Shown: positions 135 to 62,377 of the stretch, in pieces
Position numbering within the stretch: position 1 is the first letter of the stretch
Layout: each line of letters starts with the position of its first letter
Origin: Escherichia phage vB_EcoS_ESCO30
DNA: 64,000 bases
Sequence record: NC_106513.1
Strand: one strand, 5' to 3'
The notes under the pieces: generated by a model
What the model saw: the letters and a program-made list of their open reading frames with translations, nothing else
Told to the model about the DNA's origin: nothing
Database searches by the model: none
Program-made: the position numbers and the translations under genes

Positions 135-285
135 AATGCGAATGATAATGAGAATCAATCTCATTTAAAAAGTGAAATGCGAATGATAATGATTCGCATT
201 TAAGAAGGGGAATGAGAACTATTCAAGAAGTGAAATGATTCTCATTTAAAAAGTGGAATGCGAATGATAATGATTCGCATTTAAA
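135..285. repeat. Cluster of short inverted repeats (AAATGCGAAT-N7-ATTCGCATTT at about 175-201 and 257-283; AATGAGAAT/ATTCTCATT variants; further copy at 619-641)
   Basis: Repeated dyad-symmetric motifs read directly; typical appearance of dimeric protein-binding sites. Confidence 0.7.
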
Positions 286-314: not shown

Positions 315-391
315 TTATCCACAGACTTATTAACAGCACGATTTGACTTGACAGAATCCTAGCCATTTTGAGGCGTTATCCACAGACTTAT
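315..391 (+). promoter_or_regulatory. Two DnaA-box consensus 9-mers (TTATCCACA at 315-323 and 376-384) within a 16-bp direct repeat TTATCCACAGACTTAT
   Basis: Exact match to E. coli DnaA box consensus TTATNCACA; protein binding not demonstrated. Confidence 0.65.
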
Positions 392-3405: not shown

Positions 3406-3670
3406 TTGTTGGCCCTCTCGTTAATCGGTGAGTAAATGATAAGGGTAATTTTCTAGCATAGGCAAAGATTATTTTACTTTTTTATTTTCCTTGCCTAGCG
3501 CCTAGTTTTATGCTAACCGCGCAGCGGCATAGTAAAGAGCAAAACACGGCGAAGCCACCAGGGCGACGCGTTGCGGCTTTACTTTAATATTACCCTACAG
3601 CGTTTTGCTCGTTAGAAAGCGATTTAGGCCGCTTATTTTGGGCATCATTATAATATGTTTCCCATTTACC

Positions 3671-3790
3671 CTGTATATTTATACAGTAGGATAACCTGTG
3701 GATAAGTCTGTGTAAAAGTGCTATAAAGCCTTCCTATTGTGTCAATCAAATTTACAAAATGTATAAACCTGTGGATAACGTTGTGGATAA
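3671..3790 (-). promoter_or_regulatory. Palindrome CTGTATATTTATACAG plus three reverse-oriented DnaA boxes (about 3697-3705, 3770-3778, 3782-3790)
   Basis: Reverse complement gives TTATCCACA three times; mirror image of the 315-424 module. Confidence 0.65.
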
Positions 3791-3897
3791 CTTAAATGAT
3801 AGTGGTTCTCACTACAGTAAAAACTTATTAGGTAGTCTGCTAACTATTTTGTTATAATATAATAGAGATTAAACTAATAACATAAGGAAACTATAAC

Positions 3898-4425: not shown

Positions 4426-4460
4426 AAGTCAAATATTTTATTTAATAAATTAACGCAATG

Positions 4461-4490
4461 CCCCTTGATTTTTATAAGTCAAGGGGTTTT
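4461..4490 (+). terminator. Rho-independent terminator-like hairpin (CCCCTTGA...TCAAGGGG + TTTT)
   Basis: GC stem followed by T-run just after the HNH stop. Confidence 0.6.
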
Positions 4491-4885
4491 CGTATTTATT
4501 TCATTTTTGCTTTTGTTAAATACTTGTTACATCGAAAATAAGCGGCCTAAAACGCCCTAGAAAGCGATAAAGTTTTCAGCCATCCCATCATAAGGGGGCA
4601 GCCCGTTTATCGTCACCTGATGGATTCTAGAAAAATCAAGTAGGGCAAGGCAAATATAAATGAAAAAATTACTTGCCTATCTGCTCGGTTTTATGGTATT
4701 CGCGCGCCCGTTTCTTTTAATTTTAGGTGAGCGCCGGACGCGGTGCGAGTATTTGCTTTCTTTACATTTCTTTACAAAAACAAGGTTGCACCTTTTTCGT
4801 TGTTTGCTATTATTTATCTCGTAGGGCGGCAATGACGAACTACACGGCGGTAAACTTCCCGCCGCGCTCTTTAAAAATTGGGTAT

Positions 4886-5164
4886 ATCTTAAAGCCTATC
4901 GGCGGTAAACTTATATATTATAAGGAATCGCAGATATGAAACAAACGCTTTTAATAACTGGTAAACCAGCTAAAAAATTGGATGGCAATACTAAAAAATT
5001 GTTGACAATAGCCCAGCAATCCGTAAAATACCGATTTGCGCAGTACAAGAAAGGCCGCCAGCAAGGTCTGGAAATGATCTGGCGCAATATTATGATCGAC
5101 CTGAAGGAAAATCATAAAAAACTGCAAAAAATAGTTTGACTTCCTAGCCGATAGGCTTTAAGAT
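4886..5164. repeat. Perfect 18-bp inverted repeat pair ATCTTAAAGCCTATCGGC (4886-4903) and its reverse complement (5147-5164) flanking ORF 4936-5139
   Basis: Read directly; right copy overlaps a TTGACT-17-TAAGAT promoter-like element. Confidence 0.7.
4936..5139 (+). CDS. Small basic protein (67 aa), flanked by the 18-bp inverted repeats
   Basis: ATG with AAGGA SD-like; Lys/Arg-rich. Confidence 0.4.
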   Translation: MKQTLLITGKPAKKLDGNTKKLLTIAQQSVKYRFAQYKKGRQQGLEMIWRNIMIDLKENHKKLQKIV

Positions 5165-5367
5165 GTACCCAGTTCGATAAGAGTGATAACTTGATAAAAT
5201 TTGACGGTCGGCACTTACCATAATGTGTCCCGCCCCCTAACTGGGATATAGCGGCCTGCGAGGAGTTCTTTAAATTGATTATAATGGCGAGTGGATTTTT
5301 TCTTATTATCTGCTACTTTCTAGCAGATAATGCGGAACAATCCGCTTAATAAACTGGAGTTTATACC

Positions 5368-10363: not shown

Positions 10364-10547
10364 CTAATTCCCTCTCAATTTGCAGAATACGGGTGCTATC
10401 ACAACGTTGCAGTAGTACTAGCTTTTCTAGAATAACTTGTTGTTGTTTCACCTGAGCCTCTAGAGTTTTTAGGCGGAGATACACGATACGAGAGACAATG
10501 AGGATTACCCAGACTAATATTACTATTAGTGTAACTGTCACTTCCAT
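10356..10547 (-). CDS. Small membrane peptide (63 aa), member of tandem family
   Basis: MEVTVTLIVILVWVILIV TM segment; start overlaps upstream stop (TAATG). Confidence 0.5.
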   Translation of the reverse strand: MEVTVTLIVILVWVILIVSRIVYLRLKTLEAQVKQQQVILEKLVLLQRCDSTRILQIERELDV

Positions 10548-10654
10548 TATTTACGTTTCTCCGATAGTAAGGTTTCGATTCTAGCTAAGTGATTATCTAA
10601 GATACATTGCCCAATAATCACAATCCCCAGTAGTGCAATAATTACCCATTCCAT
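10547..10654 (-). CDS. Small membrane peptide (35 aa, MEWVIIALLGIVIIGQCILDNHLARIETLLSEKRK)
   Basis: Hand-translated; TAATG coupling at both ends; paralog of 10654-10809. Confidence 0.4.
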   Translation of the reverse strand: MEWVIIALLGIVIIGQCILDNHLARIETLLSEKRK

Positions 10655-10809
10655 TATTTACGATCCTCTAATAAAGTTTCAATTCTAGATAATCTATTGC
10701 TCAACTGCATTAATTTAATTTCTGTTTGGGTTACAGAGGTATCTATTACACGTAAGCCTACAAAGAGAAGTACCAATAAGACGAATATGCCAATAATTAC
10801 CCATTCCAT
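10654..10809 (-). CDS. Small membrane peptide (51 aa, MEWVIIGIFVLLVLLFVGL...RIETLLEDRK)
   Basis: Internal ATG of track ORF 10654-10839; shares MEWVII start and RIETLL C-terminal motif with neighbour. Confidence 0.5.
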   Translation of the reverse strand: MEWVIIGIFVLLVLLFVGLRVIDTSVTQTEIKLMQLSNRLSRIETLLEDRK

Positions 10810-10937
10810 TAGATCCACCCCGCCATAGCTGCTAACCAAAAACCTACGAAGATTAGGAATAATACAAAACCAAATCCGTAAATGTTAACCCACGCTTCGT
10901 ACACTTCTCCGCGTCTGTTCTTTCTTTTGTTTGACAT
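10809..10937 (-). CDS. Small peptide (42 aa) with basic N-terminus and hydrophobic C-terminus
   Basis: Hand-translated (MSNKRKNRRGEVYEAWVNIYGFGFVLFLIFVGFWLAAMAGWI); stop overlaps next start. Confidence 0.35.
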   Translation of the reverse strand: MSNKRKNRRGEVYEAWVNIYGFGFVLFLIFVGFWLAAMAGWI

Positions 10938-11114
10938 ATCTTTCGTGCCCCCGTAAATGCGGTATTTTAAAATATTTTATAATTTGTGCATAACCAACCA
11001 TGCTCGTGACTTCCTAGAAGGGCTTCTCATTTTCTTGCATAGTGTTTTATGCCAGTACACCATCCAAGAAATAAAAAATTTAGTTTACTTGGATGTCTTT
11101 TTGTTTTATACTAA

Positions 11115-44801: not shown

Positions 44802-44908
44802 TCTTTTGAATAGCTTAATAATTAGGTCGGAATTTCCTCTAGCTAGTAAGTATAGCTTTTCATAATCGAAGAATTTAATTTTTGTTTTCTCCTCGAATTT
44901 ATGTATAT

Positions 44909-44938
44909 ATTATACTAGATTTCGAGAGAATTTAGCAA
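44909..44938 (-). promoter_or_regulatory. Sigma70 promoter TTGCTA-18-TATAAT
   Basis: Minus-strand reading of 44909-44938. Confidence 0.55.
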
Positions 44939-45009
44939 CTAAAATTTTTATTTTTCTGCTTCGGACTTTCTTATCAATCCGAAACTTTCTCTCTCAAATT
45001 TATGTATAT

Positions 45010-45038
45010 ATTATACATCATTTATGAGCTGTTGCCAA
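45010..45038 (-). promoter_or_regulatory. Sigma70 promoter TTGGCA-17-TATAAT (tandem with 44909-44938)
   Basis: Minus-strand reading; shares downstream ATAAATTTGAGAGAG box with the 58030 promoter. Confidence 0.6.
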
Positions 45039-58066: not shown

Positions 58067-58300
58067 TTACGATTCCTTGAGCAAAGAAGAAAGTTCAGCA
58101 TATACTTTATCTAATTCAAACCCTATGCGAAGAGATACGTTAGTCCTCCGTTGTTTAAGTAACCACTCGGATATGTTAGGGATGCCAGCTAGTCTGTGTG
58201 GTACCACCCTACATAGCTTTTCCGAAGTATCGTAAGCAGGAACTTTACGCTCTTTTACTGGAAACTTCCTTGTTTCCCATTTTTTATTCTTCACTGTCAT
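58067..58300 (-). CDS. Hypothetical basic protein (about 77 aa)
   Basis: Track ORF trimmed to internal ATG at 58300 with GGAGAG SD to limit overlap with the HNH gene. Confidence 0.35.
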   Translation of the reverse strand: MTVKNKKWETRKFPVKERKVPAYDTSEKLCRVVPHRLAGIPNISEWLLKQRRTNVSLRIGFELDKVYAELSSLLKES

Positions 58301-58814
58301 ATCTCTCCGAGGGATTAAATTCACCAAACAGCTCTTTAACTCCCCTAAGGTATAGCTGATGGGCTTCTTCCGGGGTATCTCGTCTACCAAAAATATGCTG
58401 CTTTCCATCGCAGTAAGCGTAGGCCATATACCTATTACCTCGTTTTACAACTCCAGTGAATCCGGTAGAATTAGTAGAACACTTCTTATTCTTTCCATTT
58501 TCGGAATAGGTAGCCTTACGTAAATTATCCCACAAGTTATTTAAACTATCACCGTCTTTATGGTCGATAGTTTTATCTCCAGGATCTTCGCCTGTCTTTA
58601 TAAACCAGATTATTCTATGGGCTAAGTAAGCTGTCCGCTCCCCATTTATCGTAAACTCTAGTTGTCTCCCAGTTTTCATTTTGGAGCCCGCTACCTTTCC
58701 CTTCCTTGGGCCAGATAACCAAATTAAGTCCCCAGTACTTTCGTCATACCTAAGCTTTTCTAGGATAAATGCCATAGGAGGCATTGGTTTATGCGTCTTC
58801 ATTAGTTGCTCCAA
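58284..58814 (-). CDS. HNH-AP2-type homing endonuclease (176 aa)
   Basis: AHRIIWF...IDHKDGD...NLR and AP2-like GFTGVVKRGNRYMAYA. Confidence 0.65.
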   Translation of the reverse strand: MEQLMKTHKPMPPMAFILEKLRYDESTGDLIWLSGPRKGKVAGSKMKTGRQLEFTINGERTAYLAHRIIWFIKTGEDPGDKTIDHKDGDSLNNLWDNLRKATYSENGKNKKCSTNSTGFTGVVKRGNRYMAYAYCDGKQHIFGRRDTPEEAHQLYLRGVKELFGEFNPSERYDSEE

Positions 58815-61575
58815 GTTCTGACAGTACTTCTTCTGCCATAGCCTTCTCTTCCTCTGTCATGAATTTGAAAGGAATCGGCATACACTCGATTTTACAATAG
58901 GTTCTGTACCAGTCTACTATATTTTCAGTGTTCATATCCTTACCAATACCCATCATACCAAGATACATTCTAGCATATTTTGGGTTAGCACTCTGACCTG
59001 TTTTAAGGAAGAAGTCTTTCTTCTTACCTTTCAGAGCTTCTATGAAGGGTTTAATGGTTACATTTGAACACTTCTTAATGTCTTCCCAGAACATCTCGTG
59101 CATCTTATGGAAGAATGCAGCTCGATCGTTCGGCTTATCTTTGATATATTGTTCAACATGCTCAACTGTTACATCTTTAATAGACTCAAGATGATAATAG
59201 CGAACAAGAAGTAGTTTAGCTTCATACGCATCCGCATGACGTGGAGCACAATAATCTGGAGTTGAATGCAGAATAGCTTTGATTCGCTCTTCTGTGTACT
59301 CTTTACCAGCACCTTCGATAGTTCCCCAGCTTTCACTGAAAATATCAATAGTTGCACCTTGATCAAGTAAGTAATAACGTAAAGTACTAGTATAGTTCCT
59401 AGATTCCAGCTCCCTGCGACGTGCGTATAATTGCTGTGCTAATTCCAGCCAGCCTTCATCAATATTATATTGTTCAGAACCTGCGGAGAATCCACTCGTA
59501 GATTTATCAATAAAATAATAGATGTTCTGGGCACCACGGTCGCGCCTGATTGCTTGGAAACGCATGTTCGGCGCTTGATTACTGGTTCTAGTAATAACAA
59601 ATACGTTATCAAAATAGTTGAAGTCAACGCCACTCGTTACGGATGGACTACATAATAAACAGTCAATCTGTTGGTCAATTAGCTCATTAGTTGTATAATC
59701 CAGAATACGTCGAATATCCACATCTGAGGTGGAGTTTGAATGGATTTCCTTAACTAACGCACCAGTATTACGACGTAGTGCCATACCCTTCTCATTCAGC
59801 TCATCAGGGCCACAATCAGATACCAGAATAGATTTCTCACCCATCTCTAGAGAAGTCTGAAGTGCAACCCAAATACTGGATTCATCAGGGAACTCATAAG
59901 CATGAGCTTTTGACAGCATCTTACGGTGATGATTATAGAATGCAACTGGTTTATCGAACTCAATCAAAGAACCATATGCTTCAATTGTTTCCGCACTAAT
60001 ATCACCATCGGATAGTATAATGATTTTTGCAGTTGCAAGAATATCCCGAAGAACCTGAATACACTCGCGACGTTGCTTAACAACCGGGGCGAATAATAGG
60101 TCATTCATTACTGCATCACATTCATCAATAAAGATTGCATCAATTTGACCAATAAAACTTTTGAACTTATGTAAAGAGTGAATAGTTGTGGACATACGAT
60201 CAATAGCACCACGCTTGAAATTAAGCATATCTACAGACTTATCATATTGTCCTGCACTAAATTTCTTGGCATTTGAAGATACCAGTGCTCTAGTATTTGT
60301 AATTGCTAAGAAATTACCTTTAATAACCCCTGAATCTAACCAACGCACAACCGCCGTGGTTTTACCTGTGCCTAGACTTGCTTTTACAAAAGTCATATGA
60401 CCTTCTGGTGGCACAGTGTTTAATTTCAAGAAATTATCTGTTTCTAGAGAGTTAGTTTCTAGCTTTTTAAGTGGAATACCTTTTAAAACATCAGGTATAT
60501 CACGTTTAGAATTATTAACAAATGCTTTCAGAGCCTGTTTTCGACCGTTATTAAAGTAATCTTGAATATTACGACTATTATCTTTAGTTGCAATATACTC
60601 AGATAAAGCTGGGCGGATCTCCTTCTCTAGCCAACCAAAATCTACACCATCCTCTAACGCTCGGTGATAGAGTTTAGGAATAATACGTAGATACACTCCA
60701 TCTTCAGCTTCTTCTAGTTCGCTGATAGTTTCCTCTACTTTATCAGAGGCAGCTTTTTTACCTTTAATTTGATCGAGTAAAGAGTAGAATTCCTCTTTAA
60801 ACTCTCCTCTAGTTGTTTCATAGTCAACTAGATTATTAGGTAAATTTACTTTTGAGCCTTTAACAAATACCAGACGTGAAGCACCATCCGCTTTAAACGG
60901 ATCAACTATACCATCAGTAAATAAAGGATCTGCAAAATAGTGGAGCTGTACTGAAGAGTAATAAGCTAAGTCGGCAATATCAAAACCATACTTTTGTCTA
61001 CTACTTTCGTTGATAGATGTAAATAAGAACTTGATCTGACCCTGTGTAACTTTAACATTAGATTCTAGTATTAAGTGCATTCGGATACCTGGTTTTAGTC
61101 CAGCCGAAGACGATGCATGAGCAATAAACCCTGCATCAAGAGGAAACATATCCTCACTAATACTATTCAACATCCTAATAATATGACGCGCCATGCCAAC
61201 AAGATCAAACTTGTTACAACCTCCTGTATCTACAATACCATCCACATCCATTGCGATTATATGACTTGGATTAGATACATTAAAGTTGCCCTTCTTACGT
61301 CGCACATTATTTTTAGGTGCAAGACATCGACCTCGTACCACAACGATATGAGGGTCAGACGTTAAACGTCTCATAAGAGGAAGCATTTCTACTAGGGTTT
61401 GAGGATCAACTTCATCAATTACATCAAACTTGAAGGGCATTGAAGCTGGTTTACCTTCAGGATGCTTTGAGGAAAATCTTTTAGCAAAAAGATAATCTTC
61501 TGCTTTAACTTCTCGCCAATTGCCTGTGGCTAAATCGCGATGAAATCCTGCATGACCTTGTAGGATTGAAAACAC
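58789..61575 (-). CDS. Large SF2-type helicase, replication-origin-binding-protein-like (about 929 aa)
   Basis: Walker A SLGTGKTTAV, DExD-like IFIDECD; start re-picked at GTG 61575 after AGGAG (track start is TTG). Confidence 0.65.
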   Translation of the reverse strand: MFSILQGHAGFHRDLATGNWREVKAEDYLFAKRFSSKHPEGKPASMPFKFDVIDEVDPQTLVEMLPLMRRLTSDPHIVVVRGRCLAPKNNVRRKKGNFNVSNPSHIIAMDVDGIVDTGGCNKFDLVGMARHIIRMLNSISEDMFPLDAGFIAHASSSAGLKPGIRMHLILESNVKVTQGQIKFLFTSINESSRQKYGFDIADLAYYSSVQLHYFADPLFTDGIVDPFKADGASRLVFVKGSKVNLPNNLVDYETTRGEFKEEFYSLLDQIKGKKAASDKVEETISELEEAEDGVYLRIIPKLYHRALEDGVDFGWLEKEIRPALSEYIATKDNSRNIQDYFNNGRKQALKAFVNNSKRDIPDVLKGIPLKKLETNSLETDNFLKLNTVPPEGHMTFVKASLGTGKTTAVVRWLDSGVIKGNFLAITNTRALVSSNAKKFSAGQYDKSVDMLNFKRGAIDRMSTTIHSLHKFKSFIGQIDAIFIDECDAVMNDLLFAPVVKQRRECIQVLRDILATAKIIILSDGDISAETIEAYGSLIEFDKPVAFYNHHRKMLSKAHAYEFPDESSIWVALQTSLEMGEKSILVSDCGPDELNEKGMALRRNTGALVKEIHSNSTSDVDIRRILDYTTNELIDQQIDCLLCSPSVTSGVDFNYFDNVFVITRTSNQAPNMRFQAIRRDRGAQNIYYFIDKSTSGFSAGSEQYNIDEGWLELAQQLYARRRELESRNYTSTLRYYLLDQGATIDIFSESWGTIEGAGKEYTEERIKAILHSTPDYCAPRHADAYEAKLLLVRYYHLESIKDVTVEHVEQYIKDKPNDRAAFFHKMHEMFWEDIKKCSNVTIKPFIEALKGKKKDFFLKTGQSANPKYARMYLGMMGIGKDMNTENIVDWYRTYCKIECMPIPFKFMTEEEKAMAEEVLSELGATNEDA

Positions 61576-62074
61576 AACAATACTCCTGTGTTGGAAATGA
61601 AATAAATTTTCTTTAGGACTATTCAGAAAGAATAGAACAACTGTTACTGTCAATTTCTCAACAAATTAATCGCAAATACTGAAGTGGGGTGGCAACTTCC
61701 ACTTTCACGCTACACTGCCGCTTCACTATACCGCACAAATCCTTGAGGATGGCCGCTAAGCCAGATTTGCTCACCTAATGCTTCATGTACTAGCTCATAC
61801 TAGATGTAGTATACCTTACGTCATCACTTCTCAGAGTTTTTCACTCTTCCCGTCTCACTTCACAACCACCTCACACTAGGTTGCTTCGAGGCCTTACCAG
61901 GGTTCCTACGGGATGTAGATCGCTAAGTATTCTATTAATTATTTGTTTAAAAACTAACACGTAACAGTTAAAACAACCCTTAATGGGGCAGCCTAACTGT
62001 TCCGTATCGCGGATTGTAAACAAGAAAAATTAGCAAAATCAATTTTTACTAATGTCTCTCAATTCAATATAAAT

Positions 62075-62103
62075 ATTATATCAAGATTTTGAGCATCGTG
62101 CAA
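62075..62103 (-). promoter_or_regulatory. Sigma70 promoter TTGCAC-17-TATAAT heading a roughly 500-nt leader
   Basis: Minus-strand reading. Confidence 0.55.
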
Positions 62104-62179
62104 GTAAATTTTTAAAGAGAATGCTATCATTGGTCTTGAGTACGGATAAAACCGAGCCAAAATGACTCGGTTACGTGGA

Positions 62180-62377
62180 TTAGACACTTAAAATACTTCT
62201 AATCTCTTCTATATACTTATCTACTTTTTTAGCATCTACTTTGCTTAGTTTTTCTATATCAAAATTAGGATCAGTAAACATTCTAGCTATCTCTATCTCT
62301 AGAGACTTACTAATTTTCCCTGTAGTATTCCACTTAGAAATCTTCCCTTTTATTTTCCAAAATTCCTTATTCATCAT
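62180..62377 (-). CDS. Hypothetical protein (65 aa)
   Basis: ORF only. Confidence 0.35.
   Translation of the reverse strand: MMNKEFWKIKGKISKWNTTGKISKSLEIEIARMFTDPNFDIEKLSKVDAKKVDKYIEEIRSILSV

Follow-up and report, generated by a model that had tools for sequence, protein, structure and literature searches.

RNA II of the plasmid ColE1 is a structured transcript of about 500 nucleotides (nt) made from an upstream promoter; its fold and not a coding frame is selected, and its sequence diverges while the structure is kept. The same features are seen in the leader of the D2 helicase gene of Escherichia phage vB_EcoS_ESCO30 (NC_106513.1), of which a stretch of 64,000 nt, called the window below, was analysed. 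This phage is a T5-like phage (Demerecviridae, Tequintavirus), and the leader is read on the minus strand between positions 61576 and 62075. According to the comparative analysis, about 440 nt of the leader fold as RNA on the D2-sense strand, forming the 5′ part of a D2 message from a conserved early promoter. We propose the name Demerecviridae 'D2-leader RNA' for this element. The leader differs from RNA II in several respects. There is no similarity in sequence or structure, nothing like RNA II appeared in the Rfam searches, and the leader RNA runs into a large gene. In addition, a consensus scan showed no plus-strand promoter-like site for an RNA I-like antisense transcript inside 61576-62075, although this is weak evidence, as the scan also missed the true sense promoter.

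The primary origin of T7 and the origins oriF and oriG of T4 resemble the locus in that an early promoter is directly followed by an AT-rich segment (18-27% GC in the leader) in the replication region of a lytic phage. To our knowledge, however, these origins need no elaborate RNA fold, whereas in the D2 leader the promoter leads into covarying structure over about 440 nt. T5 also has a UvsW-like helicase, D10 (PMC12746101). The lambdoid O/ori system is another relative in logic, as D2 residues 1-550 and the adjacent element switch type together and the C-terminal half is shared. The lambda origin, however, consists of DNA iterons inside the O gene, whereas the leader is without iterons and its variable element is a folded strand; moreover, linkage alone could account for the pattern of D2 and leader types. 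The operators of T4 gene 32, gene 43 and the regA targets are likewise RNA elements that precede a replication gene within its own message and may serve autoregulation. They are tens of nucleotides long and overlap the ribosome-binding site, whereas the leader fold, of about 440 nt, stops some 30 nt short of the Shine-Dalgarno (SD) sequence. Finally, the large RNAs ROOL, GOLLD, OLE and raiA share with the leader a length of several hundred nucleotides, many helices and conserved junctions, and ROOL and GOLLD often occur in phages and prophages. Structures of such RNAs are the subject of PMC12286853. The leader has no Rfam match to any of the four, either at gathering thresholds or at E<=1-10; it is fixed upstream of one gene and, as far as searched, occurs in T5-like phages only.

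Phage therapy and research on anti-phage defence make wide use of relatives of T5, itself a classic model phage. The D2-leader RNA offers a concrete handle, which can be mutated, on how T5 replication starts and on what controls D2. With about 440 nt it is also a target of a size suited to cryo-EM, and it would enlarge the short list of structured RNAs of very large size.

Covariation in the D2 leader

The leader is numbered so that nt n corresponds to window position 62075-n, and the fold covers nt 15-456.

61619..62060, minus strand: whole folded RNA, about 440 nt (RNAalifold and pair counts; curated structure)

The leader alone folds with a z-score of -3.0. When the window, T5 and Stitch were first aligned, about 130 nt at the start and about 90 nt at the end were nearly invariant, and the middle of about 310 nt was diverged around a conserved island, GGCUUAGCGGCCA. 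RNAalifold was then applied to 17 sequences, and 100 pairs were predicted. According to the pair counts, 97.3% of the cells are paired, and both sides are changed in 32 of the 100 pairs (145 cells). In slid controls, in which the 3′ partners were moved by 1-3 columns, both-side changes were counted in 6-10 pairs and 6-23 cells. None of 500 shuffles of the 17-sequence alignment reached the observed covariation. When two intermediate lineages, L070 and L072 (D2 72% and 70% identical), were added to the alignment, 51 of 149 pairs had changes on both sides, compared with 8-15 in the slid controls, and the fold of the central domain was resolved.

Compensatory changes are also present within single types. 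Among 15 distinct sequences of the window type, which are at least 92% identical, they are located at the pairs 159-363, 161-361, 166-223, 228-242, 266-344 and 374-390, with few unpaired departures from the fold. The T5/Stitch clade has its own set for the same folding, at 158-361, 267-343, 274-298, 302-338, 303-337 and 372-391. Since these changes arose independently inside each type, the covariation signal does not hinge on one deep split. G·U pairs make up 16-18% of the paired cells, and pairing is 93-97% in the sense direction, whereas it drops to 79-80% on the opposite strand. Therefore, the fold belongs to the D2-sense strand.

A structured regulatory RNA was one of several possibilities raised in an earlier reading of this DNA, made by a model from the letters and a list of reading frames (the sequence-only reading). 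The abundant strand-specific covariation within and between lineages, together with the lack of a conserved coding frame, bears this possibility out as far as the structure is concerned, and a functional structured RNA is highly probable. The comparisons indicate that the fold is under selection in several T5-like genera and is non-coding. In contrast, the small non-coding RNA suggested as another possibility does not agree with a folded unit of about 440 nt and with the lack of a terminator before D2 in the window phage. A covariance and structure search against Rfam had been proposed by that reading. At gathering thresholds, Rfam 15 gave no match anywhere in the window; for 61400-62300 at E<=10, the matches were limited to snoRNAs and lncRNAs at chance level, and none lay inside any leader at E<=1 among 10 loci from 10 lineages. 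No family of Rfam 15 fits, including group I and II introns, RNase P, tmRNA, 6S, riboswitches, ROOL, GOLLD, OLE, raiA and HEARO, and ARAGORN found no tRNA or tmRNA. No relevant literature on a non-coding RNA, leader RNA or origin of T5 at this place was found in a search that did not extend to the over 10,000 candidate RNAs of viruses catalogued in PMC10690425. Thus, neither Rfam nor the literature searched contains this large structured RNA.

Structure of the RNA

The curated structure has 14-21 predicted helices. Two 5′ hairpins are followed by a long-range stem of about 38 bp, which closes a multi-helix core of about 245 nt (about 330 nt with both strands of the stem), and by a 3′ hairpin. 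The elements are as follows, with leader positions in brackets or, for the inner elements, alone.

62022..62060, minus strand: H1, AT-rich hairpin (leader 15-53), GAGAGAC-AUUAGUAAAA-loop-UUUUGCUAAU-UUUUCUU
61973..62017, minus strand: H2 hairpin (leader 58-102), with the near-invariant apex ACGGAACAGUnnGGCUGCC at 61987-62005
61926..61970, minus strand: P1, 5′ strand (leader 105-149), paired with 61638-61680 as an interrupted stem of about 38 bp
61638..61680, minus strand: P1, 3′ strand (leader 395-437), on the same evidence as the 5′ strand
61681..61925, minus strand: central multi-helix domain P2-P8, closed by P1, with compensatory changes in the window type and the T5 type
Leader 152-162 with 360-368, minus strand: P2, with the double compensation CUACA/UGUAG, CUGCG/CGCAG, CUGUG/CACAG
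Leader 163-226, minus strand: P3, branched arm stacked on P2, UCCCGU/ACGGGA, G-C to A-U in L007 and L010, variable loop UAG...AGGU
Leader 228-242, minus strand: P4 hairpin (curated structure)
Leader 243-259, minus strand: single-stranded junction containing GAGAAGUG
Leader 260-267 with 343-350, minus strand: P5, enclosing P6 and P7
Inside P5, minus strand: P6 hairpin (curated structure)
61735..61770, minus strand: P7, signature hairpin (leader 305-340), with an outer stem, an inner GCU-UAGC-GGC hairpin and a bulge of 7-9 nt on the 3′ side
61682..61704, minus strand: P8 hairpin (leader 371-393), AAGUGG/CCACUU, with the conserved loop AAGUUGCCACC
61619..61635, minus strand: P9, 3′ hairpin (leader 440-456), CUAUUC-UUUCU-GAAUAG, without a T-run; CUAUC/GAUAG in Klebsiella phages

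H1 is 100% identical between the window and T5, and according to the alignment read by eye it is retained with a different sequence in L070, L072 and the Klebsiella phage. By the same reading, the basal stem of H2 covaries, from ACAAUCC/GGGUUGU in the window to CCGAG/CUUGG in Klebsiella phages. P1 shows changes on both sides in T5-type phages, L070, L072 and the Klebsiella phages. The inner hairpin of P7 is GCUUAGCGGC at 61752-61761; this sequence, or at least CUUAGCGG, is invariant in window-type, T5-type, Klebsiella, Providencia and Proteus phages and in L070 and L072, and the outer stem of P7 covaries across these lineages. In P8, a U-A pair is replaced by G-C in L004, and the loop AAGUUGCCACC is kept in L070, L072 and the Klebsiella phages. 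No terminator was detected at P9 by the scan. From P9, an A/U-rich linker of about 30 nt leads to the SD sequence.

The sequence-only reading had described clustered GTGA/GAGA repeats in this transcript. Their enrichment stands. GTGA occurs 8 times in the leader as against 3.0 +/- 1.6 times in 1000 dinucleotide shuffles (P ~0.007), GTGA[AG] 7 times as against 1.8 (P ~0.001), and GNRA 31 times as against 19.4 +/- 3.5 (P < 0.001). Their repeat character does not stand, as no tandem or periodic array was found in the leader and only short families of two or three copies occur, at chance level. The GTGA and GAGA words fall in loops and junctions of the fold, and the GTGA-rich stretch pointed out at 61820-61874 spans loops and strands of P3, the P4 hairpin and the junction with GAGAAGUG. 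These 'GTGA repeats' are thus enriched loop and junction motifs of the GNRA type and not a repeat array. A replication-origin-like array of protein-binding sites, also suggested by that reading, is on the same grounds not supported as it was put; an origin-related role of the RNA itself is not affected by this.

Two alternative pairings were rejected. The H2 apex is complementary at 11 of 12 positions to the 5′ strand of P1 (inverted repeat I7); this pairing, read by eye, is lost in the Stitch type and in L070, and a switch between H2 and P1 was therefore dropped. The pairing of leader nt 65-71 (GCGAUAC) with the start region (GUAUUGU), given by RNAalifold, is present in T5-like phages only and is broken in L070, L072 and the Klebsiella phages.

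The loci L012/L050, L034/L071 and L025/L064 (at about 1957-2056) carry an insertion of 97 nt, AGTGAAGCTGACAAGGG...GTTTTTTCTT, between H1 and H2. It is flanked by a direct repeat, TTTTTCTT; the equivalent site of the window is near 62021, where the insertion is absent. Whether the centre is of the window type or of the T5 type, the insertion is 99-100% identical. It forms a stem-loop by itself and resembles a small RNA module that is mobile or optional.

Promoter, start site and reading frames

The region and its flanks are 97-99% identical to their counterparts in phages of Escherichia and Salmonella, among them HASG4, DT57C and Spc35, and 528-539 phage records have a match to the region. On the minus strand, a 65-amino-acid (aa) open reading frame (ORF; 62180-62377) is followed by a terminator, the promoter, an ORF-poor gap of about 500 nt, the SD sequence and the GTG start codon of D2.

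62146..62172, minus strand: Rho-independent terminator, stem CCGAG/CTCGG plus T-run (inverted repeat I16), annotated in HASG4 and T5; it closes the upstream operon
62075..62103, minus strand: early promoter TTGCAC-17-TATAAT, with TTGCAC at 62103-62098 and TATAAT at 62080-62075
61573..61618, minus strand: A/U-rich linker with the SD sequence AGGAG at 61583-61587 and the D2 start codon GTG at 61573-61575
58789..61575, minus strand: D2 gene, 928 aa, superfamily 2 (SF2) helicase of the UL9/CyRepA1 initiator type, homologue of T5 D2

The promoter had been located at 62075-62103 in the sequence-only reading. Its sequence agrees, and the same element is annotated in T5 as 'putative early promoter T5P32' (P32). 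The consensus scan did not report it because TTGCAC agrees with TTGACA at only 3 of 6 positions. Transcription probably starts near 62068. The promoter position is kept in Klebsiella and Providencia phages, L070 and L072 (TTGCAA or TTGCAC with TATAAT), with a different spacer sequence. The GC content of the 60 nt downstream of the promoter is 18-27%. The G+C content of the central part of the leader is 0.42-0.48 as against 0.27-0.35 in the flanks, and the strand skew on the plus strand is -0.27 to -0.44 at 61650-61900; the RNA strand is G-rich. This G-rich strand and the promoter with its AT-rich segment are no more than indirect hints of an R-loop origin. No terminator-like site was found between the promoter and D2 by the scan of the window phage. 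The start codon GTG at 61575 is the one annotated in T5 and HASG4.

Some further promoter-like sites were noted. A second sense site, TTGATT-18-TACAAT (9 of 12 matches), is located at 62013-62042 on the minus strand, inside the ultra-conserved H1 region, and is not clearly retained in the Klebsiella phage. In one T5-like phage (L028/L067, about 1850-2000), the promoter and the start of the leader are duplicated in tandem, giving two TTGCA...TATAAT units. Proteus phages (Novosibvirus; L073/L074/L042) have two perfect sigma-70 consensus promoters (12/12), at 1705-1733 and 2435-2464. One of them precedes a non-coding region of about 700 nt, and the other is located just before the D2 start codon. 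As this second perfect promoter separates the RNA from D2, the RNA is not merely an untranslated region of D2 in these phages.

The longest sense ORFs between the promoter and the GTG at 61575 have 50 aa (TTG start) and 38 aa (GTG start), in agreement with the earlier statement that about 500 nt before the helicase gene hold no ORF above 60 aa. Both are cut short or missing in the lineages of T5, Stitch, L070, L072 and the Klebsiella, Providencia and Proteus phages, and no SD sequence was seen ahead of either on reading the sequence by eye. Comparison with related genomes, which had been proposed as a check for a hidden gene, thus gave no coding frame kept across lineages.

Sequence divergence and the D2 protein

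Identity between the window and T5 changes sharply along the locus. It is 72% in the segment upstream of the promoter, 100% in leader nt 1-114, 57% in nt 115-424 and 89% in nt 425-502; in D2, the first 1.2 kb are 84% and the last 1.1 kb are 96% identical. The 5′ module with H1 and H2 is therefore ultra-conserved, and the centre evolves faster than the neighbouring gene yet keeps its helices. Because the loops within nt 1-114 are conserved as well, a constraint beyond base pairing is suggested.

D2 matches Herpes_ori_bp in Pfam, 'replication origin binding' in PHROG, the herpesvirus origin-binding protein in the Protein Data Bank and CyRepA1, a plasmid initiator, in NCBIfam. Its usual annotation is 'replication origin binding protein'. 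All these matches begin near residue 390, those in Pfam and NCBIfam at about residue 393, and residues 1-390 are unmatched; a protein search with the N-terminal domain returned two fragments only. D2 of T5 is a bipolar SF2 helicase and has been proposed as a replication initiation protein (PMC3632103).

Among 33 genomes, the type of the leader centre (window-like or T5-like) always accompanies the type of D2 residues 1-550. This part of D2 differs by about 10-12% between the two types, and identity falls to 68% in a hot spot that covers residues 351-400. Residues 551-928, on the other hand, are about 100% identical in both types (the window compared with loci L043-L077). As the N- and C-terminal parts differ so much in divergence, a recombination boundary inside D2 is indicated.

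Occurrence in other phages

The RNA was present 5′ of D2 in every T5-like locus taken from IMG/VR. It is located directly upstream of D2 in Tequintavirus, Epseptimavirus, Klebsiella (Sugarlandvirus) and Providencia phages and in L070 and L072. The defining features, namely the position upstream of D2 on the same strand, the long-range stem, and P7 with the UAGC loop CUUAGCGG, were found in the window, T5, Stitch, Klebsiella phages, L070 and L072. In Providencia phages, equivalents of P1, P2 and P7 were read from the sequence by eye and not computed. In Proteus phage RP7 and its relatives, only the CUUAGCGG hairpin could be traced.

More distant Demerecviridae, namely phages of Vibrio, Aeromonas and Enterobacter, have ORF-poor gaps of 600-1600 bp before D2, whose homology to the RNA is not established. 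In Vibrio phages (L036, L037, L082, L083, L085 and L086), a promoter-led non-coding leader of about 660 nt is located 5′ of D2. The Vibrio leaders are about 94% alike, too uniform for a covariation test, which gave 3 compensatory and 9 broken pairs. They show a mosaic like that of the T5-like leaders; L085 and L036 share 97% identity over the 5′ 105 nt and cannot be aligned in the centre. The leader of phage PG07 (L040) has a direct repeat of about 70 nt. In Aeromonas phage TS3 (L041), 1.6 kb without an annotated gene (719-2311) lie 5′ of obp. Since two CUUAGCGG hairpins are present there (about 1197 and 1442), an enlarged or duplicated form of the RNA may lie in this region.

A metagenome scan with two motifs gave 8 true copies, all near the window or Klebsiella type, and 3 chance matches, with no new lineages. 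In bacterial genomes, a 15-base motif, which was poorly chosen, gave chance matches only; none of 120 loci had both companion motifs, and one had GAAGTG only. No similar sequence, as host mimicry or a prophage copy would give, was found in 5,426 E. coli genomes. As far as searched, the RNA is confined to T5-like phages.

Possible functions

An explanation of the element has to account for the elaborate fold, the fixed adjacency to D2, the frozen AT-rich 5′ module after the promoter and the variable centre that tracks the N-terminal half of D2. It has to account also for the start region outside the fold and for the separate D2 promoter in one genus. The explanation that we tentatively place first, although we would not call it probable, is that the RNA is a type-specific partner of D2 and that the element is a transcription-linked replication origin. 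A nascent, tethered transcript would be made across the AT-rich segment just downstream of the conserved early promoter. The N-terminal half of D2 would bind this transcript, and the helicase would thereby be loaded at this place; D2 translation, too, could be under feedback from this binding. The logic would be that of ColE1 RNA II or of the T4 R-loop origins, combined with a lambda-like pairing of cognate initiator and origin. The initiator type of D2, the 18-27% GC after the promoter, and nt 1-114 being frozen amid surroundings of 72-84% identity suggest an origin role. Bourguignon and colleagues reportedly placed the primary origin of T5 near the centre by electron microscopy in 1976, and the locus is located at 48.5-49% of the T5 genome length.

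Several points weigh against an origin recognised by D2. The co-segregation with the N-terminal half of D2 is inseparable from plain physical linkage. No experiment maps a T5 origin at the sequence level, and binding of D2 to RNA is not reported in the literature covered. No iterons or repeated protein-binding boxes were found in the leader. An iteron-type double-stranded DNA origin was accordingly rejected, as the AT-rich segment is present but a tandem array is not, and the repeat families are at chance level. There is no GC skew switch at the locus; the switch of the window is near 38-40 kb, where it appears to follow gene orientation. A metagenomic D2 homologue (L079, 47% identity) has only a short AT-rich upstream region, from which the motif is absent. 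In addition, the strand bias of recombitrons has been read as T5 replication mainly from one end (PMC10055335). In a stronger form of the proposal, which we consider rather unlikely, the folded transcript and not DNA repeats would specify the origin and be recognised by the N-terminal half of D2, with the ultra-conserved 5′ module as the unwinding and host-interaction part, or the RNA would represent a new class of large ribozyme or ribonucleoprotein scaffold. In either case, a long-established model phage would have a large RNA of a new functional class.

A doubtful explanation, but a close second to the origin reading, is that the leader acts in cis. The folded 5′ untranslated region would bind a phage protein (D2 or another early replication protein) or a host factor, and the binding would set the translation, stability or processing of the message for D2 and the replication operon; the P1 stem of about 38 bp could be an RNase III site at which the message is trimmed. 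RNA and D2 share one transcript without a terminator between them in the window phage, the place directly 5′ of D2 is fixed across genera, the start codon of D2 is a weak GTG, and the co-segregation with the N-terminal half of D2 suits autoregulation as well as origin recognition. The pairing of GCGAUAC (nt 65-71) with GUAUUGU between the SD sequence and the start codon in T5-like phages would also agree with such control, but it is not kept in the other lineages named above. Moreover, the SD sequence and start codon are located about 30-45 nt beyond the folded core in the A/U-rich linker, the predicted accessibility of the SD sequence (partition function) varies inconsistently from 0.01 to 1.0 between lineages, the scan found no terminator/antiterminator pair, and the perfect promoter of the Proteus phages stands between RNA and D2. 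The size of about 440 nt and the 14-21 predicted helices far exceed those of any translational operator that we know of. The expression platform of a riboswitch or attenuator leader was not found, with no terminator-like site before D2, no conserved sequestration of the SD sequence or start codon, and the inconsistent SD accessibility; we also know of no riboswitch aptamer as large as 440 nt. Even if stabilisation or regulation is all that the RNA provides as a leader, its elaborate make-up is unusual.

It is unlikely that the RNA is instead an independent, trans-acting large RNA, with a role as ribozyme or scaffold, in anti-defence or in the takeover of the host, which would share its promoter with D2 and might be released by processing. 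Its size and helix count, the conserved loops and junctions (GAGAAGUG, AAGUUGCCACC, UAGC) and the GNRA enrichment are typical of RNAs with tertiary structure. An arms race could be behind the fast divergence of the centre with the fold kept (57% identity, compared with 84% for the gene next to it); in Proteus phages the RNA has its own promoter apart from that of D2, and the optional insertion of 97 nt is tolerated between H1 and H2. However, the RNA was found beside D2 in every case and never elsewhere, as in the metagenome scan, where T5-like and Klebsiella-phage copies and the 3 chance matches were all that was found. The scan detected no 3′ end signal, and no similarity to E. coli genomes hints at mimicry of a host RNA. 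Action of the fold as single-stranded DNA, with the displaced D2-sense strand as a structured initiation signal for priming like sso or ssi elements or the complementary-strand origins of single-stranded DNA phages, is highly improbable. Strand-specific covariation with G·T-compatible pairs does not separate RNA from DNA of the same strand, and the element adjoins an initiator helicase gene. Yet the conserved promoter fires straight into the element, so that RNA of this sequence is very probably made, and 16-18% of wobble pairs would be costly in DNA hairpins; ssi and sso elements, of about 40-300 nt, are also much smaller and simpler. Finally, a spacer or decaying sequence without dedicated function, or a hidden gene for a small protein, is effectively excluded. 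Several records annotate small ORFs here (2-4 'hypothetical protein' entries), and the window has the ORFs of 50 and 38 aa, but these are not conserved between lineages, start with TTG or GTG and show no SD sequence on reading. A neutral spacer is ruled out by the many compensatory substitutions and by the 100% conservation of nt 1-114.

Other features

An HNH endonuclease ORF of 176 aa (Pfam HNH_3) is located at 58284-58814 on the minus strand and overlaps the stop codon of D2. Since HASG4 has no gene at that place, the ORF is probably a homing endonuclease insertion. In Escherichia phage SUT_E420 (OQ990039.1, 59046-60422; H165), the match to the first 400 aa of D2 is split in two and spans 1377 bp as against 1200 bp. 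The approximately 177 bp inserted in this gene are a candidate intein or intron, or an assembly error. Other stretches of the window longer than 200 nt without an ORF of at least 70 aa are located at 3406-3897, 4426-4726, 4940-5367, 10436-11114 and 44802-45021, the last of which has a GC content of 26%.

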